A stretch of DNA of 64,000 nt from Spirochaetota bacterium (lineage in GTDB: Bacteria; Spirochaetota; UBA4802; UBA5550). Position 1 is the stretch's first letter, and each line of letters starts with the position of its first letter. Where the stretch lies: contig JAGNKX010000006.1 in NCBI GenBank assembly GCA_017999915.1, forward strand, positions 64,077 through 128,076, given 5' to 3'. The position numbers and the translations under genes were made by a program. Positions 29,264 through 42,316 of the stretch are shown piece after piece. A model generated the notes under the pieces. The model worked only from the letters and a program-made list of their open reading frames with translations, was not told the DNA's origin and searched no databases.

Positions 29264-30865
29264 TTAAAGGTCCCACTTGATGATAGGGGCCTTGACGTCC
29301 ACCATGGCGTTGACGATGAGCTCGACGAGCCCGCCGTAGGCCATCCCCGATTTTTCCCGTACCCCGTAATAATCGAAGAGGTCCCTGATCTGTCCCTTGC
29401 AGTTGGAGCAGGGAGCGCACAGGTATTTTTTTGTATCCGGACCGGGGCAGTCGGCAAAGGCCTCCAGTATCTGCCGGAGCTTCATCCTCCCCGCCACGCT
29501 CACACGCCAGTCCCGGAAGTTGTTCTGGCCCATAATGGCGAAGCCGCTCCCGCCGCCGCAGCAGTAGTTATCCGCGCCGTGGGGCTCCATCTCGCGGAAC
29601 TGCGGGCAGAGCTTCCGGATGATGCGGCGCTGGGGCTCCACGATGCCCAGGTTCCGCACGATGTTGCACGGGTCGTGGAGGGTCACCGGGAAGTCGTTCT
29701 TCGACGGGTCGAAGGCGATCCGGCCGCCCATGACGATCTCCTCCAGGAAGGTGAGGGAGCTCTCCCGGGGGATGTTCAGGTCTCCGGTGAGGATGCGGTC
29801 CGCTATGGTTATCAGGGCCTTGTGGGCGTGGCCGCACTCGCCGAGAATCACTTTCTTGACCTTGAGCTTCTTCGCGGCCTCCATGTGCTTCATCACGATG
29901 CGGGAGAGCTGCACGTCGTCGTAGAAGAGGCCGTAGTTCACGCTGTCGTAGGCGGGTGCCTCGGACGACAGGGTCCAGCTCACGCCGGCCGCGTTCAGGA
30001 TGATGGCGAAGGCGGCAGGATTCTCAGGCCAGGCCAGGATCTCGCCAGCGTTGTGCATGAGGAGCACGTCGGCGCCCTCTTTGTCCCAGGGCGTTTCGAT
30101 GGTTATGCCCAGCTCCTCGGACAGGTCCTCGTCGAGGAAGTCGACGTTGTCTTTCACCACGTTCGGCTTCATGCCGGTGGATGATCCGACCGCGAGTTGG
30201 AGCACAGTTCCCTTCTCGTGGAGCTCCTTCGGCGCCCAGCCGAGCTCCTGGCTGAAGAGCTTGCGGAGCTCCCTGGTCACCAGGGCGTTGTCGAGGCCCA
30301 TGGGGCAGGCCTGGGCGCAGCGCCGGCAGAGGGTGCACCGGTATGAAAGCTCGTAAAGGCGGCTCACCGCGGTCCAGTTCAGGTCGATATCCTCGAGCCT
30401 GAGCTTCGCCATGATCCCGCCGCCGGGTCTCGCGTATTTTTTAACCAGCCGCCGGAACACCTCGGAGCGGTACGTGGGGCGGTAGATCTCGTTCCCGCCG
30501 CTTTCGCGGTAGATCGGGCAGGCCTGGGAGCAGGTCTGGCACCGGGCGCAGTAGTCTATCGTGAGGAGGAGCGGCTGGAGGAAGGTCCAGTTGTTCTCCC
30601 GCGATAGGAGCTTTTGGAGCCCGGCGATGAAAGCTTCGACGACGCGCCGCTCATCGGCCGCGTCCTTCGGCTTCGGAAGGGAGAGGGCCGCCACGCCGTC
30701 GAGGTCGCAGGCAATGGTGTTGCGCTGGTCGTCGCTGAGCTTTTTCCATCCGGGCTGGTCCTCGATCCGGTCATAGGGAGGCGGGAGGGGAAGGAGGTCG
30801 TTGACGTTTATCTCGGTGAGGGGCGCCTCGCCCCTGCTTATATCTTTGATCCCTGTTTTTTTCAT
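29264..30865 (-). CDS. DsrK/HdrD-like iron-sulfur protein (paralog). It has two ferredoxin CxxCxxCxxxCP motifs plus a C-terminal CCG domain.
   Basis: 533 aa. It has CARCQTCSQACP, CTLCRRCAQACP and ...YCCGGGSG. It is a paralog of the DsrK at 34085-35710. Confidence 0.7.
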   Translation of the reverse strand: MKKTGIKDISRGEAPLTEINVNDLLPLPPPYDRIEDQPGWKKLSDDQRNTIACDLDGVAALSLPKPKDAADERRVVEAFIAGLQKLLSRENNWTFLQPLLLTIDYCARCQTCSQACPIYRESGGNEIYRPTYRSEVFRRLVKKYARPGGGIMAKLRLEDIDLNWTAVSRLYELSYRCTLCRRCAQACPMGLDNALVTRELRKLFSQELGWAPKELHEKGTVLQLAVGSSTGMKPNVVKDNVDFLDEDLSEELGITIETPWDKEGADVLLMHNAGEILAWPENPAAFAIILNAAGVSWTLSSEAPAYDSVNYGLFYDDVQLSRIVMKHMEAAKKLKVKKVILGECGHAHKALITIADRILTGDLNIPRESSLTFLEEIVMGGRIAFDPSKNDFPVTLHDPCNIVRNLGIVEPQRRIIRKLCPQFREMEPHGADNYCCGGGSGFAIMGQNNFRDWRVSVAGRMKLRQILEAFADCPGPDTKKYLCAPCSNCKGQIRDLFDYYGVREKSGMAYGGLVELIVNAMVDVKAPIIKWDL

Positions 30866-30868
30866 TAT

Positions 30869-31765
30869 CTATTTCCCCTGAGCGATATCGATCCAATTTT
30901 TTGAGCCCTCCGATCCGACATGGGGAGCGGACCATCGGACCGGTTGGCCGAGCAGCTTTTTTATCTTCTCTTCAGCGGCCGCGTCCATGGGGCTATCGTC
31001 CCAGAGGACGCTGTGAAAGGTGAAGAATTTCGCGGCAAAGTGCCTCATGGAGGTGAAGGGAAGCACGGCCAGGAAGAAGAGGACCGCGCCGATGTGCGCC
31101 GCCCCTGCCCGTGACAGTGAAATATGCGAATCGGCCCTGAATACCGCTTCGATGAAGTCCCTGATCTGGGAGGCCAGGTCGCCGTCCGCGACCAGGGAGG
31201 ACACGCCCGTGGCGAAAAGGGCCAGCAGGATGATCAGGTTCAGGTAGGCCGAGATCCCGGAGTAGGAGCGGAGGTCCCGGCGCACCGCCCGCAGCACCAG
31301 CAGCGACAGTGACCCGGCGAGGCCGAAGAGGTAGCCAATGGTGCCGAGGAAAACGGCTATTCCTTCGAGGAAAGCCGCGGCGGAAGAGAACCCGGCCGCG
31401 TCGACAGCGGCGGCGGCCGCCAGGCACAGCGCCATGAAGAAGATGAAGTAGATGCCGCCATGGAGGGCCATCGAAAAGGGCCAGAGCCGCCTGTGTCCCT
31501 TCCATACGGTGTGGAGAAGGAAAATTTCCTTCATCATATAAATGATTTCATGAATTATGGAGCGCTCCCGGGGCTTCATCCACCAGTCCTGCACCTCGAA
31601 ATAAGAGCCTCCGTAGGATGAGCCGGCCCTGTCATGGGGCACCGGCGCGAGCTCCCACCGGAGATGGGCCGGTAGGCGGGCGATGCGGACAATGCACGCC
31701 GCGATGCCTGCGATGAAGATTGCGATAGATGAGTAAGCGGCAATGAGCCAGATTGTTCCGTTCAT
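30869..31765 (-). CDS. DsrM/NarI-like membrane cytochrome b (paralog); the likely partner of the preceding DsrK-like gene.
   Basis: About 299 aa from the internal MNGTIWL start, which has an RBS. It is a polytopic membrane protein. Confidence 0.6.
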   Translation of the reverse strand: MNGTIWLIAAYSSIAIFIAGIAACIVRIARLPAHLRWELAPVPHDRAGSSYGGSYFEVQDWWMKPRERSIIHEIIYMMKEIFLLHTVWKGHRRLWPFSMALHGGIYFIFFMALCLAAAAAVDAAGFSSAAAFLEGIAVFLGTIGYLFGLAGSLSLLVLRAVRRDLRSYSGISAYLNLIILLALFATGVSSLVADGDLASQIRDFIEAVFRADSHISLSRAGAAHIGAVLFFLAVLPFTSMRHFAAKFFTFHSVLWDDSPMDAAAEEKIKKLLGQPVRWSAPHVGSEGSKNWIDIAQGK

Positions 31766-31782
31766 GGGTCCTCCAGGGTGCG

Positions 31783-32931
31783 TCAATCTCTCCGCCGCAC
31801 CGCGGCTGTTATCTTGAAGAGCAGGGTAAGGATGAAAAGCCCCGTTGCCCACACGCCGAGGGTGATGAATACTTCGGCCAGGGTGGGCCGGTACGACGGT
31901 ATCTTCTCGAGGGGATCGGGGATGAATCCTCCCACCACGAAGCCGAGGCCCTTCTCGATCCACACGGAGGCGAACACGGCGATGGCCGCGATAAGAAGGC
32001 CCGCGTCGCGCCGCCGCGCCGGCGTGTAGAGAATCGCCAAGGCGGCGACTGCCAGGGCTATGGAAATCCACATATAGGGCGTGAGCGACGAGGGATCACC
32101 CCAGCCCCAGAAGAGCCGCTCCAGCGGCGCCCGGTGCGTGGGGATGCCGCTGTAGAGGGCGGTGAATATTTCGAGAATAATGAAAAAGACATGGGCGCTG
32201 AAGGCGTAGGTGATGATGGTCCCCAGGGAGCGCTCGGGCCGGTCGCCCGGGTCGAAATCCGTATAGCGCCGCGCCACGCGGCAGAGCACGATGAGGAGGG
32301 CCGGGCCGGAGGAAAAGGCCGACGCCAGGAAGCGCGCCGCCGTGATGGCCGTGAGCCAGAGGTGCCGCCCCGGGAGCCCCGCGTACAGGAAGGCGGTCAC
32401 GGTGTGGATGCTGATCGCCCAGGGGATCGACAGGTAGATGACCGGCTTCACCCAGGCGGGCGGCGGCGTTCCCCGGTGCTCGGCCGTGAGGACCGTCCAC
32501 CCGATCAGGATGTTGATTACCAGGTATAGGGAAAGGACCACCGTGTCCCAGAACATGGGGGACGTCGGCGACGGATAGAGTATGACGTGGAGTATCCGGA
32601 AGGGCTGTCCCAGGTCGACGAAGATAAAGAGAAGGCACATGACGACCGCGGACACCGCCAGGAATTCCCCCAGGATCGTGATCCTGCCGAAGGCCCGGTG
32701 GTCGTGGAGGTAGTAGGGGAGCACCACCGTCACGGCCGAGGCGGCCACGCCCACCAGGAAGGTGAACTGGGCGATGTAGAGGCCCCAGGACACGCTCCGG
32801 GACATGCCGGTAACGGAAAGACCCTCTGTTGTCTGTTTAAAGTAAAAGAATATCCCCGCTGCGATGAAGAGGCCCAGTGCCAGGAGAAGGAGCCAGTAGC
32901 GCCGCGGGCCATGGAACACTTTTTCTATCAT
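31783..32931 (-). CDS. dsrP: DsrP (NrfD/PsrC-family integral membrane subunit).
   Basis: About 382 aa from MIEKVFHGP (GAGG RBS upstream). It has 10 predicted TM helices and the NrfD family pattern. It is the last gene of dsrMKJOP. Confidence 0.75.
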   Translation of the reverse strand: MIEKVFHGPRRYWLLLLALGLFIAAGIFFYFKQTTEGLSVTGMSRSVSWGLYIAQFTFLVGVAASAVTVVLPYYLHDHRAFGRITILGEFLAVSAVVMCLLFIFVDLGQPFRILHVILYPSPTSPMFWDTVVLSLYLVINILIGWTVLTAEHRGTPPPAWVKPVIYLSIPWAISIHTVTAFLYAGLPGRHLWLTAITAARFLASAFSSGPALLIVLCRVARRYTDFDPGDRPERSLGTIITYAFSAHVFFIILEIFTALYSGIPTHRAPLERLFWGWGDPSSLTPYMWISIALAVAALAILYTPARRRDAGLLIAAIAVFASVWIEKGLGFVVGGFIPDPLEKIPSYRPTLAEVFITLGVWATGLFILTLLFKITAAVRRRD

Positions 32932-32938
32932 GGAATCC

Positions 32939-33709
32939 TCACAGGAGATAGTATACGGCCGGGTCGGTCCCGAGCTCCGGTTTTCGCCGGAGGGCGATCC
33001 TTCCGGCCAGTGCCTTCCGCACCGCCGAGGCGCCATCGCGGAGGTCGCCGAAGGCAATGGCCTTTTCACCGCAGGCGGACGCGCACAGGGGCTCCTGGCC
33101 GCGGTCGACCCGCTCCGCGCAGAACTCGCATTTTTCCACGGTCCCCTTGGTGCGGGTCGGGTAGTCTTTATTGATAGATTGCTTCGCCAGGTATTTTCGC
33201 GGGTCGCTCCAGTTGAAGCTCCGGGAGCCGTAGGGGCAGGCAGCCATGCAGTAGTGGCAGCCGATGCAGCGGTGCTGGTCCATCATGACGATGCCGTCGC
33301 CGCGCTTCCAGGTCGCGCCGGTGGGGCACACCCGCACGCAGGGCGGGTTCCCGCACTGGTTGCAGAGAAGCACCGGTTTCGCGCCGCGCAGTTCCCCGCC
33401 GGAAAAGTCGTCCAGGACGCCGGGCATGGCGCGCTCCAGGTCGTCCCGCCAGATCCAGGCGATGGCCCGCTTCACGTCCGGTATGGCCGGCACGTTGTGG
33501 CCCCGGTGGCAGGCGTCGACGCACTTCTCGCACTGCCCCGCCTTCAGGCAGGCCCGGAGGTCCACCGCCATGGCGAGGCGTTTTCCGGCCGGCGGCGCGG
33601 TTTCGGCGCCGAGGGCTTTGCCGGCCATGATCTCGAAGGAGGCGCCGCCGAATATGATGATGCCGGTGCGCCAGGCCTTTCTCAGGAATTCAAGCCGTGT
33701 CAGTTCCAT
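32939..33709 (-). CDS. dsrO: DsrO (periplasmic FeS ferredoxin-like subunit, PsrB/HmcB family).
   Basis: 256 aa. It has multiple 4Fe-4S motifs (CNQCGNPPCVRVCP, CIGCHYCMAACP, CEFCAERVDRG). It has an N-terminal Tat-like signal. Confidence 0.75.
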   Translation of the reverse strand: MELTRLEFLRKAWRTGIIIFGGASFEIMAGKALGAETAPPAGKRLAMAVDLRACLKAGQCEKCVDACHRGHNVPAIPDVKRAIAWIWRDDLERAMPGVLDDFSGGELRGAKPVLLCNQCGNPPCVRVCPTGATWKRGDGIVMMDQHRCIGCHYCMAACPYGSRSFNWSDPRKYLAKQSINKDYPTRTKGTVEKCEFCAERVDRGQEPLCASACGEKAIAFGDLRDGASAVRKALAGRIALRRKPELGTDPAVYYLL

Positions 33710-34092
33710 GGTCCCCGCTCCGATGTGTCGATATGGCAGTCAAAGCAGGCCGGTGCCGACCCCAGGGCGGTGTGGCAGCGGTCGCAGAAATTTTCTTTTT
33801 TAGCATGGCATTTGAGGCAGGAGCCGCTGAGGCTCTTCTCGTACTGTTTGCCGCCGATTGTCACGGCGCTGCGGACGCCCTTCCGCACGACATCGTCGCG
33901 CCATTGAAAGAGGAGGGTCATGTGGTTCGCCCTCATCTCCGACGCGGGGAGGACGCATTCTTTTTCAACGGCGGGCTTTTCCGGCGCCGGCGATTTTTTC
34001 TTCGCGCCGCGCAGGACGTTCCACCAGAAGGGCGCCCCCACCAGGGCGGCGACCAGGGTCAATGCGGCGGCCGTCTTTATTATCCTACTCAT
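33700..34092 (-). CDS. dsrJ: DsrJ (periplasmic triheme cytochrome c).
   Basis: 130 aa with a signal peptide. It has three CxxCH motifs (CLKCH, CDRCH, CFDCH). Confidence 0.8.
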   Translation of the reverse strand: MSRIIKTAAALTLVAALVGAPFWWNVLRGAKKKSPAPEKPAVEKECVLPASEMRANHMTLLFQWRDDVVRKGVRSAVTIGGKQYEKSLSGSCLKCHAKKENFCDRCHTALGSAPACFDCHIDTSERGPWN

Positions 34093-35710
34093 TTTTGCTG
34101 CCCTCCTCCCCGAGGGGCTCGCCCCTCAGGTTCGCGGTCCGGGGCGTCTCGCCCTTCATGACCAGGGCGTTGCCCAGGAGCTCGTGGACGCCGCACACGT
34201 CCACGCCGGGGACCCAGAACTGCATCAGGGTGGGGAGCGTGGCCTTGTCGATGGCGCAGATGCAGGAGAGCATGTTCACGCCGTGGCGCTCCCGCACGTG
34301 GCGCACCGCCTGGGCCCGGGGGAGGCCGCCGCGCAGGCGCATTTCCAGGTTCTCGTCCGTGCCGATGCCGGAGCCGCTGCCGCAGCAGAAGGTGTGCTCC
34401 CGGATGGTCTCCTCCGGCATTTCGTAGAAATGATCGCAGGAGGCCTCGATGACGGCCCGGGGCTCGTCGAAGAGGCCCATGGCCCGGGCCGGGTTGCACG
34501 AGTCGTGGTAGGTCACGCGGTAGGCCCTGTTACGGGAGGGGTCCAGGGCGAGCTTCTTATTGTGTATAAGGTCGGCGGTGAATTCGCAGATATGGACCAT
34601 CTTTGTCGAGCGGGCGTGGTCGAAGACCGTGCCGGTGACCGGCGACCGGGGCGTTTCCAGAAAATCGGCCGGCCCGTTCATGGTGTCCATGTACTGGTGG
34701 ATGACGCGCCACATGTGGCCGCACTCGCCCCCCAGGACCCACTTCACGCCCAGGCGCTTCGCCTCGGCGTAGATCTTGGCGTTGAGGCGCTTCATCAGCT
34801 CCGTCGAGTGGAAGAGGCCGAAGTTTCCTCCCTCCGACGCGAAGGCGCTGAAGGTATAATCGATCCCCATCTCGTGGAGCATCATCAGGTACCCGTAGAA
34901 GGTGAAGATGTGGGGATCGGCGAAGATGTCTGCCGACGGGATTATGAAGAGGATCTCGGCGCCCTTCCTGTTTATGGTGGGCTCCACCGTGATCCCCGTG
35001 AGCTCCCGGATCTCGTCCACGGCGAAATCGATGTTGTCGCGGAAGGTGTGGGGCTGGAGCCCCAGGTGGTTCCCGGTGCGGAAGCAGTTCGAGGCCGGCT
35101 CGATGATCCAGTTGATGTTCACGCCGATGAGGTTCAGGAGCTCCCGGCCCATCATGGTGATCTCGGCCGTATCGATGCCGTAGGGGCAGTAGACCGCGCA
35201 GCGGCGGCACTCGGTGCACTGGTAAAAATAATAAAACCACTCTTTTATAACCTGCTCCGTGAGGCGGCGGGCGCCGATGAGCCTGCCGAAGATCCTTCCC
35301 GGAAGGGTGAGCTCGCCGCGGTAGACCGACCGGAGGAGCTCGGCGCGGAGCACCGGCATATTTTTCGGGTCGCCGGTGCCGAGGAAGAAGTGGCACTTGT
35401 CGGCGCAGGCGCCGCAGCGCGCGCAGGTCTCCATGAAGAGTCGGAACGACCGGTTCCGGCCCAGGCGCTCCCGCATACCATCAAGGACGATCTTTTTCCA
35501 GTCCGGCGGGAGCTTCCAGTCCCCGTCATGGGGCTGCCACTCCCGCGGGTTCGGCAGGCCCAGGTACTGGACGTGCTTCGCCACGCCGGCGTGGCTGTAG
35601 GTGCCCTTGCGCATCGGCGCCGGCATATCCTTCCAGTCTTCGGCGGGCATAGGGGCCGCCATGGCCAGGTCGTGGGGTCGGTATTTCTCAGCCATTGCCG
35701 CCTCCCTCAA
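34085..35710 (-). CDS. dsrK: DsrK (HdrD-like catalytic FeS subunit with a CCG domain).
   Basis: 541 aa. It has CARCGACADKCHFF, CTECRRCAVYCP and CCG-domain cysteines (...FCCGSGSG). Confidence 0.85.
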   Translation of the reverse strand: MREAAMAEKYRPHDLAMAAPMPAEDWKDMPAPMRKGTYSHAGVAKHVQYLGLPNPREWQPHDGDWKLPPDWKKIVLDGMRERLGRNRSFRLFMETCARCGACADKCHFFLGTGDPKNMPVLRAELLRSVYRGELTLPGRIFGRLIGARRLTEQVIKEWFYYFYQCTECRRCAVYCPYGIDTAEITMMGRELLNLIGVNINWIIEPASNCFRTGNHLGLQPHTFRDNIDFAVDEIRELTGITVEPTINRKGAEILFIIPSADIFADPHIFTFYGYLMMLHEMGIDYTFSAFASEGGNFGLFHSTELMKRLNAKIYAEAKRLGVKWVLGGECGHMWRVIHQYMDTMNGPADFLETPRSPVTGTVFDHARSTKMVHICEFTADLIHNKKLALDPSRNRAYRVTYHDSCNPARAMGLFDEPRAVIEASCDHFYEMPEETIREHTFCCGSGSGIGTDENLEMRLRGGLPRAQAVRHVRERHGVNMLSCICAIDKATLPTLMQFWVPGVDVCGVHELLGNALVMKGETPRTANLRGEPLGEEGSKNE

Positions 35711-36683
35711 GGTCGTAGCCTGATTTCGCCAGGCGGTCGCGGAACTCCTCCTCCCACTCGCCGTAGCTGTGGACCGGCACCTCGGGGTTCCACGGGTTCA
35801 CCCGGCGCCGCCTGCGGCTGTCCGCGGCGGCATTCCGTGTCGGCGAGAAGAATACGCCGGCCATGTGCGATATCTTGCCGGCCGGTATCGCGGCGGCCAG
35901 GATCGAGACCAGGGCGATGTGCACGTAGAACGAGGGCGGCGCCTTTTCCGGAAGGACCGGGCTGAAGGAGAGGAGCCCCAGTGCGTACTGCTTCACCGCC
36001 AGGAGGTCGACGCGGCCGAAATAGCGCAGCCAGATGCCGGAGAGGGCCACGGCCCCGATCAGGGCCAGGAGAAAATAATCCTGGAACAGCGAGACATAGG
36101 CCACACGCCGGTCCGCGATGCGCCTCATGAAAAGGAAAAGGAGCGCGGCGATTATGATAATGTCGGTGATAAGCAGAGGCGGAGTGCCGATATGGAAGAC
36201 GCCGTCAATGCTCTGCAGCAGCCCGGTCCATGCCGGCACCGGCTCGACGGCGAGGCGCAGGTGCCTGAGAACGATGACGAGCATGGACCAGTGAAAGGCC
36301 ATGGAGCCCAGCCAGAGCCACGTGGCCGGTCCGTACACGATGGCCGTGCCGTACCGGCCGGCTTTAGAATTCCTGAAAAGGGAGCGGAAAAGGGCCGTTT
36401 CCAGGACCATGCGGAGCGCCGCAGCCCAGGGGCGCTGGGGATTGTCCAGGGGCTCCGCCTTCACCCAGAGAAGGGACTTCTGCTGGCCGCAGGTGACAGC
36501 TATATTGAAGGGAACCGGGGTCAGGGCCCAGCGGCCCACGCGCCAGAGCATCCCCGCGGCCAGGACCAGGCAGCCGGCGTAGGGCAGGGCGATGCCGATG
36601 AGGCCCCTCAGGCCCAGGACCGCGCAGGCCCAGGCGGCTAAGGCGATACAGGCGGCTGCCGCTATGGCGATGGCGCTTTTCAT
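35688..36683 (-). CDS. dsrM: DsrM (NarI-like dihaem membrane cytochrome b).
   Basis: 331 aa with 5-6 TM segments. It has the NarI-family pattern. The 3' end overlaps the dsrK start. Confidence 0.8.
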   Translation of the reverse strand: MKSAIAIAAAACIALAAWACAVLGLRGLIGIALPYAGCLVLAAGMLWRVGRWALTPVPFNIAVTCGQQKSLLWVKAEPLDNPQRPWAAALRMVLETALFRSLFRNSKAGRYGTAIVYGPATWLWLGSMAFHWSMLVIVLRHLRLAVEPVPAWTGLLQSIDGVFHIGTPPLLITDIIIIAALLFLFMRRIADRRVAYVSLFQDYFLLALIGAVALSGIWLRYFGRVDLLAVKQYALGLLSFSPVLPEKAPPSFYVHIALVSILAAAIPAGKISHMAGVFFSPTRNAAADSRRRRRVNPWNPEVPVHSYGEWEEEFRDRLAKSGYDLEGGGNG

Positions 36684-37319: not shown

Positions 37320-38486
37320 ATGTCGGATACACCCCTGCTGGATAAGCTGGAACAGGGCCTGTGGCCCAGCTTCGTAAAGGAGATCAAGCGCGCGGCGGAG
37401 AAGAACCCCGCGGCGAAGGACCTGCTCGGCATCGTCGAGCTGTCCTATAATGACAAGGTGACCCACTGGAAGCACGGGGGCATCGTCGGCGTCGTGGGAT
37501 ACGGCGGCGGCGTCATCGGCCGCTATTCGGACGTGGCCGAAAAGTTCCCGGCCGCGGAACAGTTTCACACCGTACGGGTGAACCATCCCGCAGGATGGTT
37601 CTATGACACGAAATCGCTCAGGAAGATATGCGATATATGGGAGAAGCATGGCAGCGGCCTGACCAACTTCCACGGCTCCACCGGCGACATCATACTGCTG
37701 GGCACCAGGACCGACAGCGTCCAGCCCTGCTTCAACGAGCTTTCCGAGGCGGGCTTCGACCTGGGAGGCTCCGGGTCGTGCCTGCGGACGCCGACGGGAT
37801 GCGTGGGACCGGCCCGGTGCGAATGGTCCTGCTTCGATACCCTGGACCTCATCCACGACCTGACCCACTCGTTCCAGGACGAGCTGCACCGGCCGCGGTG
37901 GCCCTACAAGTTCAAGATCAAGGCCTCCGGCTGTCCCAACGACTGCGTGGCCGCCATAGCGCGGTCCGATTTCACCATCATCGGGACCTGGCGCGGCAGC
38001 ATCAGGATCAACAACGACGAGATCAAGAAATACGTCGCGAAGGGCGTGAACATGAAGGAGGACATCGTGGACCGCTGTCCCGGGAGCGCCCTTTCCTTCG
38101 ACGAAAAAACATCGACCCTGTCGGTGCGGCCGGAGGAATGCGTCCGGTGCATGCACTGCATCAACAAGCTCACGAAGGCGGTCAAGCCGGGCGCGGAGAA
38201 GGGCGCGGCCATTCTCATCGGCGGCAAGGCGCCGATTCTCCGCGGCGCCTTCCTCTCCTGGGTGCTGGTCCCCTTCATGGAGATCAAGCCGCCCTACAAG
38301 GAGATCAAGGACCTGCTGGCCAAGATGTGGGACTGGTGGGACGAGAACGGCAGGAACCGCGAGCGTATCGCCGAGACCATTTCGCGCGTCGGCCTGAAGG
38401 TGTTCCTGAAGGCCATGGATATGAAGCCGCTGCCGCAGATGGTCAAGCATCCGCGGTCGAATCCCTTCGTATTTTATAACCGATAA
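37320..38486 (+). CDS. dsrA: Dissimilatory sulfite reductase alpha subunit.
   Basis: 388 aa. It has [31 protein letters not shown] and a siroheme/FeS Cys cluster ([23 protein letters not shown]). Confidence 0.9.
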
Positions 38487-38507
38487 CTATCGCAGGAGGA
38501 AAACATT

Positions 38508-39566
38508 ATGGCACGCACAGATATAGGCCCCCCGGATTTCCGCACCATGCTGCCGGAGGCCATCAAGAAAAATTACGGTACATGGGATTACCACGAGATT
38601 CTGAAGCCGGGCGTGATGCGCCACGTCGCGGCCGGCGGCGACGTGCTCTATACCGTCAGGGCTGGCACGCCCCGCCTGCTGAGCATCGATTGTGTCCGCG
38701 ACATCTGCGACATAGCGGACAAGTACTGCGACGGCCATCTCCGGTTCACGAGCCGGGCCAACGTGGAGTTCATGACGCCGAAGAAGGAGAACGTCGACGG
38801 CATCGTAGCGGCGGCGAAGGCCATGGGGCTCCCGGTGGGAGGCATCGGCGACTGCGTGTCGAACATCGTCCACACCCAGGGGTGGATCCACTGCCACAGC
38901 GCCGCCACTGACGCGTCGGGCCTGGTGAAGGCGATCATGGACGAGCTCTACGGCTACTTCACCGAGTTCAGGCTCTCGTCGAAGCTGCGCATCGCCGTGG
39001 CCTGCTGCATCAACATGTGCGGCGCCGTCCATTGCTCCGACCTGGCCGTGGTGGGCGTCCATACCAAGCCCCCCAAGATCGACAATGACCGCCTGACCAA
39101 GGCGTGCGAGATTCCGTCCACGATCCGGTCGTGCCCCACGGGGGCCATCCGGAAGAACCCGGACGGCGACGGCCTGGTGGTGAACCGCGAGCGGTGCATG
39201 TACTGCGGCAACTGCTACACCGTGTGCCCCGCCATGCCCCTGGCCGACGCCGAGGGAGACGGCCTCGCCATCTTTGTCGGCGGCAAGGTCTCCAACGCGC
39301 GCAAGGCGCCGATGTTCTCGCGCCTGGCGATACCCTTCCTGCCGAACAATCCGCCCCGCTGGCCCGAGGTGACCGATGCCCTGAAGAACATCGTCGAGGT
39401 GTATGTTAAGCATTCGCGCAAGTACGAGCGCCTGGGCGAGTGGATCGAGCGGATCGGGTGGGAGCGCTTCTTCACCCTCACCGGCATAGAGTTCACCGAG
39501 GACCACGTGGACGATTTCACCACCGCCACGGAGACCTACCGGTCGTCGATGCAGTACCGCTGGTAA
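38508..39566 (+). CDS. dsrB: Dissimilatory sulfite reductase beta subunit.
   Basis: 352 aa. It has [44 protein letters not shown] and a ferredoxin domain ([12 protein letters not shown]). Confidence 0.9.
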
Positions 39567-39628
39567 CGCCGGCAAGAAAATCCCCCGGGCCTTTGTTCGG
39601 GGTTTGTATAGAGCAAAGAATTATGCGG

Positions 39629-39661
39629 GAGAGCCCCATTCCGGGATGCCGGGATGGGGCT
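39629..39661. terminator. GC hairpin GAGCCCCA-ttccgggatgccggga-TGGGGCTC followed by a T-rich tract. It is a bidirectional terminator between the convergent dsrB and hydrolase genes.
   Basis: Read directly. Confidence 0.6.
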
Positions 39662-39668
39662 CTTGTTA

Positions 39669-40493
39669 TTAATTGCCGGCGAGCCCGCCGTAGGCGCCGG
39701 GGCGGCGCTCTTTCAGGAAATACCCCATGGACGAGGAGCGCACCCGGCCGATGACGTCGCGGCGCACATCGGCGGCCGCGATGGCGGCGCCGTCTCCGTG
39801 GGAGCTGTCCAGGATCTCGCCCTTCGGATCGAGGACCAGGCTCGCCCCCTGGAACACCATGGCGCGGCCGTTGTCGCCGCACTGGTTGCAGGCCGCCACG
39901 TAAAGGCCGTTGTCGTAGGCCCGCGCAGGCAGGTAGCGGAGCCACCGGGCGAGCTTTTCCGCCGGGGTTTCCGGCGGCGGCGACGCGTGGGGATAAAATA
40001 TGATGTCCGCCCCGGCCAGGGCGTAGAGGGTCGCGAGCTCGGGGAAGTGCGCGTCATAGCAGAGGCCGATGCCGAAGGAGAAGCCCTTCCACCGGAAGAC
40101 GGGCGTTTCGCTCCCGGCCGCGAAGAGTCGCTGCTCCCCGGGAGAAAGGTGCATCTTGCGGTAGAGCCCTATCAGGCCCCCTGGCCCCGCCGCGACCTGG
40201 GTTATGAAAAATTCGCCGCCGGAGCGTTCGATGAATCCCGCGATCACCGCGCACCCCCGTGTGCTGCTCGTCTGGATGAGCCGTTCGGTGAGGGGGCCGG
40301 GCACTTCCTCGGCCAGGTCCAGGGCGTCCTTCGAGAGACAGTAGCCGGTGAGGGAGCACTCCGGGAAGCAGACAATATCCGCGCCAGCGGTCCCGGGACC
40401 CTGAAGGAGCCCTTCCATTAATGAGAAGTTCCCGTCAACGTCGCCAAAGGGGGCGGGGCAGCTCACCGCGGCGATCCTGATAACATCAGTCAT
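39669..40493 (-). CDS. Carbon-nitrogen hydrolase (nitrilase superfamily).
   Basis: 274 aa. It has the E-K-C triad context (FPECSLTGY, ...KMHL..., GIGLCYDAHFPE). Its start overlaps the dsrN stop (ATGA). Confidence 0.7.
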   Translation of the reverse strand: MTDVIRIAAVSCPAPFGDVDGNFSLMEGLLQGPGTAGADIVCFPECSLTGYCLSKDALDLAEEVPGPLTERLIQTSSTRGCAVIAGFIERSGGEFFITQVAAGPGGLIGLYRKMHLSPGEQRLFAAGSETPVFRWKGFSFGIGLCYDAHFPELATLYALAGADIIFYPHASPPPETPAEKLARWLRYLPARAYDNGLYVAACNQCGDNGRAMVFQGASLVLDPKGEILDSSHGDGAAIAAADVRRDVIGRVRSSSMGYFLKERRPGAYGGLAGN

Positions 40494-41905
40494 GATATCC
40501 TCTCCCGGGCCAGGGCCACCAGGGCCCGCGGCCAGGTGACGCCGCTTCCCAGGGCGTGGGTGTGGCAGAAGGTCCCCAGGGCGTTCTTATACAGGACCCC
40601 GTCGCGGCCCTCCCTGAGGCCCGTGCCGCGCTCCATGGAGAAAACGGTTTCAACGGCGCCGGCGCCGTTGAGGCGCGAATACCTGAATTCATGGCCCCGC
40701 ACAACGGTTCCCTGCGGATAATAGGGATTGCCCCGGTCAACGGTGAAGCAGGTGTAGCCATGGCCCTGGGGCTTCCGGCTCACGGTGAAGCGGAGAGGGA
40801 ACACGCCGGTCATCGGGTATTCCGTTCCGCCGGCATCCAGCGTTTCGGAAAGATACACCAGGCCGCCGCATTCGGCGTAGACCGGCAGGCCCTCCTCCAC
40901 GGCGTCGCGGATGGCTTTTCGCAATGAGACGTTGGCCGCGATCTCCCGCGCGTGGGTCTCGGGAAACCCCCCGCCTATGTAAAGCCCGTCGATGGGCGGC
41001 AGCGCCGCGTCGCGCATCGAATCGATCTCGACGATGGCGGCGCCGCTCCCGGCCAGGGCCTCTATGTTTTCAGGATAGTAAAAGGTGAAGGCGCTGTCGC
41101 GGATGACGCCGATGGTCGGAGCCGCTTTCCCGGTTTCCGGTGAAGGCGCGGCGCTGTCGGCAGGGCCGCCGAAAAGCGACGCCAGGGACGGATAGCCATG
41201 GCGCTCCATGATGGCCATGATGCCGTCGAGGTCCACGGCTGCGCCCACGGCGCGCGTTATGGTCTCGATGATGCGGTCCGGTTCAGTGTGCTCCTGCACC
41301 GGCACGAGACCCAGGCTTCGCTCCGCAAGGTCGAGGCCCGGTATGCGGGGGATGGCGCCCAGGACCGGTATGCCGCAGTAGCGCTCGATGGCGCCGGCTG
41401 TGATGGAGCGGTGCCGCTCCCCGGCCACGCGGTTCAGGATCACGCCGCGCAGGGCCAGGTCAGGGTCGAAGGCCTGGCAGCCCCGGACCATGGCGGCGAC
41501 GGTGCGGCTCGCCTTGGCGCAATCGGCCACCAGTATGACCGGTATACCCAGGAGCCCGGCAAGGCCTGCGACGCTGTGGGTCCCTTCAATGTCCATGCCG
41601 TCGAAGATGCCGCGGTTTCCCTCCACGACGGCGACGGCGCAGTCGCTGTTGCGGGACAGGTACGTATCAATGATGGCGTCCCTTTCCAGGAGATAGGTGT
41701 CGAGATTGTGGCAGTGGCGGCCGGCCGCGCGGGTGAGCCAGGCCGGGTCGATGTAGTCAGGCCCCTTCTTGAAGGGGGCGGCGGCGATGCCGCTCCGCCT
41801 CAGCGCCCCGATGAGGCCCAGGGTCACCAGGGTCTTGCCGCTGCCGCCCCTGAGGCCGGCGACGGCGATTCCCCTGCGGGATTGCGTTCGGGTGCTGTCG
41901 GCCAT
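40490..41905 (-). CDS. dsrN: Cobyrinic acid a,c-diamide synthase homologue; likely DsrN (siroheme amidase).
   Basis: 471 aa. It has an N-terminal P-loop (GLRGGSGKT) and a C-terminal GATase with AECGG. It sits directly downstream of dsrC in a dsr locus. Confidence 0.65.
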   Translation of the reverse strand: MADSTRTQSRRGIAVAGLRGGSGKTLVTLGLIGALRRSGIAAAPFKKGPDYIDPAWLTRAAGRHCHNLDTYLLERDAIIDTYLSRNSDCAVAVVEGNRGIFDGMDIEGTHSVAGLAGLLGIPVILVADCAKASRTVAAMVRGCQAFDPDLALRGVILNRVAGERHRSITAGAIERYCGIPVLGAIPRIPGLDLAERSLGLVPVQEHTEPDRIIETITRAVGAAVDLDGIMAIMERHGYPSLASLFGGPADSAAPSPETGKAAPTIGVIRDSAFTFYYPENIEALAGSGAAIVEIDSMRDAALPPIDGLYIGGGFPETHAREIAANVSLRKAIRDAVEEGLPVYAECGGLVYLSETLDAGGTEYPMTGVFPLRFTVSRKPQGHGYTCFTVDRGNPYYPQGTVVRGHEFRYSRLNGAGAVETVFSMERGTGLREGRDGVLYKNALGTFCHTHALGSGVTWPRALVALARERIS

Positions 41906-41932
41906 GGGCGCCGGAACAGTCCTGGCGGCGGG

Positions 41933-42250
41933 TTATACGCATCCGGTCGGTTTCGGCAGTCCCGCCCATTTGCACGCGGAGTTGGCCGGCCCCTGCGGAA
42001 ACAGCTCGTACATCTGTTTCAGCTGCACGCCCGTTTCCTTGGTGAGTTTGCGCACCATGGGGGCGATGCCGTTGTCCTTGTAATAGTCCCGAAGGTAATT
42101 CATCACCTTCCAGTGCTCGTCGGTGAGGCTGTTGATGCCTTCCTTTCCGGCCAGGGCAGCCGCGATGGCTTCAGTCCATTTCTCCGGCTCCTGGAGGAAG
42201 CCGTCCTCGTCAACCTCGTACATTACGCCGTTGAGTTCGATTTGTGGCAT
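41933..42250 (-). CDS. dsrC: DsrC.
   Basis: 105 aa. It has the canonical C-terminal arm ...CKWAGLPKPTGCV with two conserved Cys. Confidence 0.9.
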   Translation of the reverse strand: MPQIELNGVMYEVDEDGFLQEPEKWTEAIAAALAGKEGINSLTDEHWKVMNYLRDYYKDNGIAPMVRKLTKETGVQLKQMYELFPQGPANSACKWAGLPKPTGCV

Positions 42251-42316
42251 AGTCGTATCCTTTCATAATTTATTAATGTTCAATTTCAATATAGTATGTA
42301 TCTCCCGGGTGTCAAA

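Follow-up and report, generated by a model that had tools for sequence, protein, structure and literature searches.

The window analysed here is a 64,000-nucleotide (nt) stretch of contig JAGNKX010000006.1 from a Spirochaetota bacterium. It carries genes for dissimilatory sulfite reduction (dsr genes), and next to them a gene for a nitrilase-superfamily carbon-nitrogen hydrolase, abbreviated CNH below. The gene set of dissimilatory sulfite reductase, the enzyme driving the global sulfur cycle, has been repeatedly catalogued. dsrC, the amidotransferase gene dsrN, and CNH follow one another on the minus strand (Table 1), and these three open reading frames (ORFs) agreed in position and strand with those of an initial annotation made from the sequence. 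dsrC and dsrN are separated by 27 nt. The junction between dsrN and CNH is −4 nt: as also recorded in the initial annotation, the ATG of CNH shares 4 nt with the TGA of dsrN in the ATGA at 40490-40493 of the minus strand. A Shine-Dalgarno-like GGAGAGG was found 5 nt 5′ of this ATG. The predicted promoter 5′ of dsrC sits within an AT-rich gap separating a methyl-accepting chemotaxis protein gene from dsrC, and the terminator-like hairpin lies 5 nt past the CNH stop, between the convergent CNH and dsrB. dsrC, dsrN, and CNH are predicted to constitute one transcription unit, in which CNH appears to be translationally coupled to dsrN. DsrC has both conserved C-terminal cysteines, Cys93 and Cys104, the latter being the penultimate residue. 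Window DNA occurs in wastewater, anaerobic-digester, and sediment metagenomes; an RNA run was not among the sequencing runs listed as containing it.

Table 1 Features of the dsr region of the window (aa, amino acids).
Feature	Position	Strand	Basis or remark
Sigma-70-like promoter, TTGACA-16-TATATT	42288-42315	-	11/12 consensus positions; sequence match alone
dsrC, 105 aa	41933-42250	-	PF04358, E = 2e-38; TIGR03342, 120 bits (cut-off 53.5)
dsrN, CobB/CbiA-type ATP-dependent amidotransferase, 471 aa	40490-41905	-	CbiA/AAA_26 and GATase_3 domains, E = 5e-36
CNH, predicted dsr-associated nitrilase-superfamily amidase, 274 aa	39669-40493	-	PF00795, E = 3e-43
G+C-rich terminator-like hairpin	39629-39664	+ (as called by the scan)	16-pair stem, 10 G-C pairs
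dsrB, 352 aa	38508-39566	+	NIR_SIR, NIR_SIR_ferr, and Fer4; convergent with the dsrC-dsrN-CNH unit
dsrA, 388 aa from first ATG	37320-38486	+	NIR_SIR and NIR_SIR_ferr domains
ORF, 189 aa	36680-37249	-	Without Pfam match
dsrM	35688-36683	-	Nitrate_red_gam; divergent from dsrAB
dsrK	34085-35710	-	Fer4_8 with CCG; divergent from dsrAB
dsrO-like	32939-33709	-	Fer4_11; divergent from dsrAB
dsrP-like	31783-33069	-	NrfD; divergent from dsrAB
Second dsrM-like gene	30869-32071	-	Nitrate_red_gam
Second dsrK-like gene	29264-30865	-	Fer4_8 with CCG

CNH scored 148.6 bits against the CN_hydrolase profile PF00795 (cut-off 23.2), with residues 6-252 covering profile positions 1-255 of 256. The nitrilase E-K-C triad noted in the initial annotation corresponds to E45, K113, and C145, which were invariant, together with the second glutamate E120, in an alignment of 24 family members. 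Two further motifs were invariant in the same 24 members, namely the family-specific PHASP..EK..RW[LM]R[YH]LPARAYDN and the C-terminal MGYFL..RRP..Y. W184, R186, R191, R252, and R263 are likewise conserved. An AlphaFold2 model of CNH (pLDDT 94.4) was compared with known structures using Foldseek, which indicated an alpha-beta-beta-alpha sandwich (probability 1.00; TM 0.80-0.88 against about 50 nitrilase-superfamily structures). The top matches to the model (6ypa, 2w1v, and 3ivz; TM ~0.87) were all small-molecule amidases, and the best sequence and structure matches also included a plant N-carbamoylputrescine amidase and a Nesterenkonia aliphatic amidase. Judged from sequence and predicted fold, CNH is a stand-alone, amidase-type protein of the nitrilase superfamily with its catalytic residues intact.

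NCBIfam equivalog profiles compared with CNH included archaeal nitrilase (NF040852; 102.1 bits, cut-off 500), N-carbamoylputrescine amidase AguB (TIGR03381; 92.3 bits, cut-off 410), and Nit1-type deaminated glutathione amidase (NF033621; 81.2 bits, cut-off 355). Because every equivalog score was far below its cut-off, CNH is assigned by profile scores to none of the named functional families. The label ‘N-carbamoylputrescine amidase’ on its relatives is automatic annotation, and annotation pipelines mislabel CNH by this name or as ‘nitrilase’. The other three CN hydrolases of the window's genome are ≤29% identical to CNH and located elsewhere. In a family tree rooted with these paralogues, the window CNH grouped with other Spirochaetota sequences; the paralogue branches were about 10 long, making the root and deep order unreliable, and the tree was used for this grouping alone.

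The amidase/nitrilase group of Pyrococcus (P. horikoshii PH0642, PDB 1j31/6ypa; P. abyssi 3ivz) gave both the best sequence match to CNH (E ~1e-29; 29% identity when structurally aligned) and the best structural match (TM 0.87). Both are stand-alone proteins of ~265-275 aa that share the E-K-E-C residues and resemble each other in the C-terminal tail, and in the HMMER alignment three CNH motifs (FPE, YRK.HL, and C-[YF]-D) fell on the corresponding Pyrococcus segments. However, CNH differs from the archaeal enzymes in its family-specific insertion and motif and in its strict synteny with dsr loci, for which those enzymes are not known. Nit2 (ω-amidase) and Nit1 (deaminated-glutathione amidase) are small cytosolic accessory ‘clean-up’ amidases. 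CNH has the same fold (mouse Nit2 2w1v, TM 0.85) at ~28% identity, whereas Nit1 and Nit2 are housekeeping enzymes without locus linkage.

The amidotransferase encoded upstream of CNH showed the CobB architecture, that is, a synthetase domain with a P-loop (G20-T25) and a GATase_3 domain with the catalytic cysteine; Cys346 lies within AECGG at residues 344-348, so that the glutaminase cysteine asked about in the initial annotation is retained. The NCBIfam profile that names this protein is CobB (413 bits). The window protein is the sole CobB homologue in the 5.46-Mb, 99% complete genome, and CobQ was searched for in this genome and not found. Its identity to the CobB homologues within dsrABN operons of other phyla is 47-54%, against just 31-38% for second CobB paralogues. 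Based on the copy number, the lack of a CobQ match, and the higher identity to DsrN of dsrABN operons, the protein is assigned to the dsr-linked DsrN clade, in agreement with the initial annotation and with identities and copy number standing in for a formal tree, and its reading as a cobalamin enzyme was rejected. That DsrN amidates siroheme was learned from genetics in A. vinosum (cited in Neukirchen et al. 2023, PMC10504309). In 46/46 DsrN/CobB homologues examined, including all those adjacent to CNH, Cys346 and the C-terminal histidines were invariant.

To survey the CNH neighbourhood, a pattern scan was run with one genome per species and yielded 467 CNH relatives, of which the best 80 (40-76% identity) were inspected; almost all of these 80 adjoin dsr genes. 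We then clustered the neighbouring genes, scanned them against Pfam, and tallied 100 loci with CNH at ≥40% identity. dsr or siroheme genes stood beside CNH in 99 of the 100 loci, and the sole exception has merely 182 bp of sequence 5′ of CNH. dsrN was the gene directly before CNH in 26 loci; in 62 this place was taken by a siroheme decarboxylase gene of the AhbA/B type and in eight by yjbQ, so that a siroheme-handling enzyme gene stood immediately upstream of CNH in 88 loci. dsrC was present in 88 loci as well, and most of the remainder end just upstream of CNH. These comparisons indicate that the CNH family (≥40% identity) is a distinct subfamily and an accessory component of dsr loci in several phyla. 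The pairing with dsrN recurs well beyond the window's genome.

Gene order around CNH varied among lineages. Five of 41 genomes of the window's own order have a CNH orthologue (63-100% identity), and all five show dsrC-dsrN-CNH convergent on dsrB. Elsewhere we found dsrA-dsrB-dsrN-CNH-dsrC or dsrN-CNH-dsrC, the latter also in a Hydrogenedentota-labelled metagenome-assembled genome (MAG) and in a second Spirochaetota lineage, and CNH divergent from dsrA-dsrB-dsrN-dsrC. Most Desulfobacterales have an Hdr/Flx-like set of redox genes followed by dsrC-[yjbQ/UPF0047]-[NirDL/AhbAB-type gene]-CNH. Cultured carriers of CNH include Desulfosarcina cetonica JCM 12296 (L070) and Desulfonema limicola. The dsrN-CNH pair is retained through the rearrangements dsrC-dsrN-CNH, dsrN-CNH-dsrC, and dsrABN-CNH-C, which span Spirochaetota, Desulfobacterota, and MAGs labelled Abyssobacteria, Poribacteria, and Hydrogenedentota. 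In ~30 loci of several lineages, the dsrN stop and the CNH start lay −8 to +66 nt apart, and eight loci had an NTGA overlap. The initial annotation had regarded CNH as a dedicated partner tightly coupled to DsrN. The conservation of the pair bears this out in broad terms, but a partnership with DsrN alone does not hold, as the association covers the whole dsr locus (dsrC, dsrN, ahbA/B, and yjbQ). A complex of DsrN and CNH predicted from both alignments together scored 0.00; controls were not run, and this score was counted neither for nor against.

AhbA/B siroheme decarboxylase opens haem synthesis from siroheme. The gap between the Ahb-like gene and CNH had a median of 35 nt, and the Ahb-like neighbour was one of only two strong copies in each genome checked. 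Because each of these genomes holds only two such genes, the neighbour is AhbA or AhbB itself; a third, dsr-specific NirDL-like paralogue or an AsnC-type regulator was ruled out on the same count. The window's genome encodes a single ~365-aa frame with two NirDL-like HTH domains (C14:240976-241632), which looks like a fused AhbA/B-type siroheme decarboxylase. Given this frame, the siroheme-dependent haem route is probably present in this organism.

Several other genes accompany these loci. A UPF0047/YjbQ-family gene lies directly after dsrC in most Desulfobacterales loci (L023:5145-5537, L050:5561-6004, L070:673-1053, and ~50 others; L numbers denote individual loci), and in four of the eight loci in which yjbQ immediately precedes CNH the two overlap by −4 nt. 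Of the three yjbQ genes in the window's genome, not one belongs to the dsrC-dsrN-CNH locus. Before dsrC, Desulfobacterales have a conserved four-gene redox set (L020-L090, e.g., L020:7-4828 and L050:2096-5041) encoding HdrA-like FAD/4Fe-4S, FrhB/Fer4, Fer4_22 AsrA-like, and FAD/NAD AsrB/FlxA-like proteins, which looks like a soluble DsrC-directed electron-transfer module. In one Desulfobacterales subgroup (L038, L045, L051-L056, L060, L064, L069, L078, and L089), a long CN-hydrolase-domain protein is encoded upstream of dsrC on the opposite strand, beside miaA and a radical-SAM gene; by its length alone, we would guess that it is NadE-like. It is unrelated to the CNH family.

To examine how strictly CNH is tied to dsr genes, we searched 401 sampled Desulfobacterota genomes with a CNH-family profile (E ≤ 1e-50) and identified dsrB by TIGR02066. 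CNH matches were obtained in 55 genomes and dsrB in 208, and 50 of the 55 CNH-positive genomes were dsrB-positive. Three further genomes, all fragmented MAGs, had a strong CNH beside dsrC, in two of them also beside dsrN. The remaining two matches were weak (32-34% identity), had no dsr neighbours, and fall outside the family. Strong CNH thus occurred in 53 of 401 genomes, every one with dsr genes, and ~24% of the dsrB-positive genomes carry it. The association of CNH with dsrB gave a Fisher p of 5e-11, a value overstated by the non-independence of related genomes. CNH is not a housekeeping clade, and with the pairing conserved in other genomes, neither of the two refuting outcomes named in the initial annotation applies. 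Its association is very probably specific to dsr loci.

On the other side of the census, relatives with dsr genes often do without CNH. The same-genus genome G011 has dsrC-dsrN, with the dsrN stop only ~70 bp away from that of dsrB, and CNH was not found anywhere in this genome at the threshold used; many Desulfobacterota have dsrA-dsrB-dsrN-dsrC with nothing where CNH would be. Because close relatives have dsrC-dsrN or dsrABNC without CNH, CNH is an accessory, dispensable gene. About half only of the genus-level relatives carry DsrN or dsr genes, so that dsr itself is patchy in the lineage. The closest relatives of the window locus are labelled Spirochaetota/‘Leptospirales’ (L011, L012, L019, and L141), with 94% identity between the DsrA of the window and that of L011, and the Desulfobacterota framing of the initial annotation has to be dropped. 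Sequence comparison thus presents CNH as a real, conserved, dsr-specific accessory gene for a predicted amidase.

The CNH family points to an accessory step, probably in siroheme cofactor handling. Because the gene just upstream encodes a siroheme-handling enzyme (DsrN or AhbA/B) in nearly all loci, gene context suggests a carboxamide on a siroheme-type tetrapyrrole as the substrate, which we regard as quite possible though short of probable. DsrN would amidate siroheme, and CNH would convert the siroheme amide back to the acid; alternatively, CNH may target over- or mis-amidated sirohydrochlorin or siroheme species. It would thereby edit what DsrN produces or put amidated cofactor back into the pool of siroheme from which haem is made. 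Such a thiol amidase would be placed at the branch point between siroheme amidation and siroheme-dependent haem synthesis, and the dispensability of CNH is what would be expected of an editing or salvage enzyme. That CNH is a dedicated siroheme-amide (siroamide) amidohydrolase reversing or editing the amidation by DsrN is offered tentatively, as a specific and still doubtful proposal. CbiZ adenosylcobinamide amidohydrolase carries out an accessory amide cleavage on a modified tetrapyrrole for cobamide salvage. It is a precedent for the proposed role by functional analogy only, sequences and structures not having been compared; CbiZ belongs to a protein family with no relation to that of CNH and cleaves a corrinoid aminopropanol amide, a substrate unlike that proposed for CNH.

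Several observations weigh against a siroheme-type tetrapyrrole amide as the substrate. dsrC is as constant a neighbour of CNH as the siroheme enzymes, small aliphatic amides are the substrates of the closest solved relatives of CNH, four loci have CNH divergent from dsrA and not adjoining dsrN, yjbQ precedes it in eight, and three quarters of the dsrB-positive genomes have no CNH. A search among longer proteins for fused DsrN-CNH or Ahb-CNH forms found none and gave only unrelated proteins of 577-623 aa with ≤31% identity to CNH, which is weak evidence in the same direction.

The main rival reading is a role linked to DsrC or sulfur, which would fit the synteny almost as well, given that dsrC accompanies CNH just as constantly. 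The substrate could be an amide or nitrile that is not a tetrapyrrole but is connected with DsrC or with the chemistry of sulfite reduction. CNH could serve, for example, in the repair of a damaged small metabolite from sulfite reduction or the deamidation or deacylation of DsrC, and its adjacency to siroheme enzymes would then merely reflect shared dsr regulation. dsrC occurs in 88/100 loci and directly adjoins CNH in the dsrN-CNH-dsrC type; the nearest structures, Nit2 ω-amidase and the PH0642 amidase with glutaramide bound, belong to metabolite-repair or small-amide enzymes; and the co-located yjbQ has no tetrapyrrole link. However, dsrN stands between CNH and dsrC in the window lineage, as yjbQ and/or ahb do in Desulfobacterales, and it is a siroheme enzyme gene that directly precedes CNH in 88/100 loci. 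We also know of no amide-bearing intermediate of the Dsr pathway, which counts against this role, and we consider it unlikely.

The initial annotation had offered two roles for CNH, the supply of ammonia for siroheme amidation and the removal of an amide. For the former, the model is NadE, in which a CN-hydrolase domain serves as the glutaminase of an ATP-dependent amidating enzyme. The tight, conserved dsrN-CNH junctions with start-stop overlap would suit a glutaminase or ammonia-generating subunit feeding DsrN, and the NadE-related profile NF010588 matched CNH weakly (81 bits). However, NadE is a fused enzyme that has an ammonia tunnel, whereas CNH is a separate 274-aa protein without fusion to a synthetase, and a fused form was not found. 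DsrN has its own GATase_3 glutaminase, with Cys346 and the C-terminal histidines kept in 46/46 homologues. CNH follows ahbA/B or yjbQ, not dsrN, in 70/100 loci, including the siroheme decarboxylase gene in most Desulfobacterales; dsrN lies elsewhere in the one ahb/yjbQ-type genome checked; and relatives carry dsrN without CNH. Because every CNH-adjacent DsrN keeps its own glutaminase cysteine, ammonia supply is highly improbable. Amide removal is the best current hypothesis, as it appears to fit the gene context of CNH better. Finally, that CNH is a housekeeping or hitch-hiking gene linked by an inherited accident of one ancestral operon is scarcely credible: CNH is missing from about three quarters of the dsrB-positive genomes and from close relatives, and many loci come from related Desulfobacterales, but at least four gene orders in different phyla all hold CNH inside dsr/siroheme clusters, all 53 strong-CNH genomes have dsr genes, and the homologues at ≤34% identity and the three paralogues lie elsewhere.

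The remaining dsr genes of the window comprise dsrAB and the divergent dsrMK(J)OP genes, which are followed by the second DsrM-like and DsrK-like genes. The 189-aa ORF between dsrM and the divergent dsrA occupies the position where dsrT-like/RsbRD_N-domain genes sit in other dsr loci (e.g., L013:2898-3449). dsrB is directly followed by the terminator and the convergent CNH, and dsrD is not in that place (window 37320-39668). A search of the whole 99% complete genome for DsrD (PF08679) gave no match, but control genomes equally gave none. Diao et al. (2023, PMC10591310) reported Spirochaetota MAGs of both kinds, some having dsrD and some lacking it.

Neither the word hydrolase nor nitrilase occurs in two large dsr surveys, one on synteny across 2070 genomes (Neukirchen et al. 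2023, PMC10504309) and one covering 950 genomes (Diao et al. 2023, PMC10591310). In literature searches of incomplete coverage, nothing relevant was found that pairs dsrC or dsrN with a nitrilase, carbon-nitrogen hydrolase, or amidohydrolase, and a relevant paper on UPF0047/YjbQ was likewise not found. CNH is a gene present in the dsr loci of about a quarter of the sampled dsrB-positive Desulfobacterota and of several other phyla that goes unmentioned in those large surveys, and at minimum it offers a new marker that sets apart some dsr loci. What purpose the amidation of siroheme by DsrN serves is poorly understood. A hydrolase tied to dsrN or to a siroheme decarboxylase gene provides a concrete means of testing whether the amide undergoes editing, removal, or recycling, and it bears as well on the partition of siroheme between DsrAB and haem synthesis. 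If CNH does act as a siroamide amidohydrolase, it would represent a new enzymatic step in tetrapyrrole metabolism, and in bacteria that reduce sulfite and sulfate it would determine how much siroheme goes to the cofactor of DsrAB and how much to siroheme-dependent haem synthesis through Ahb.

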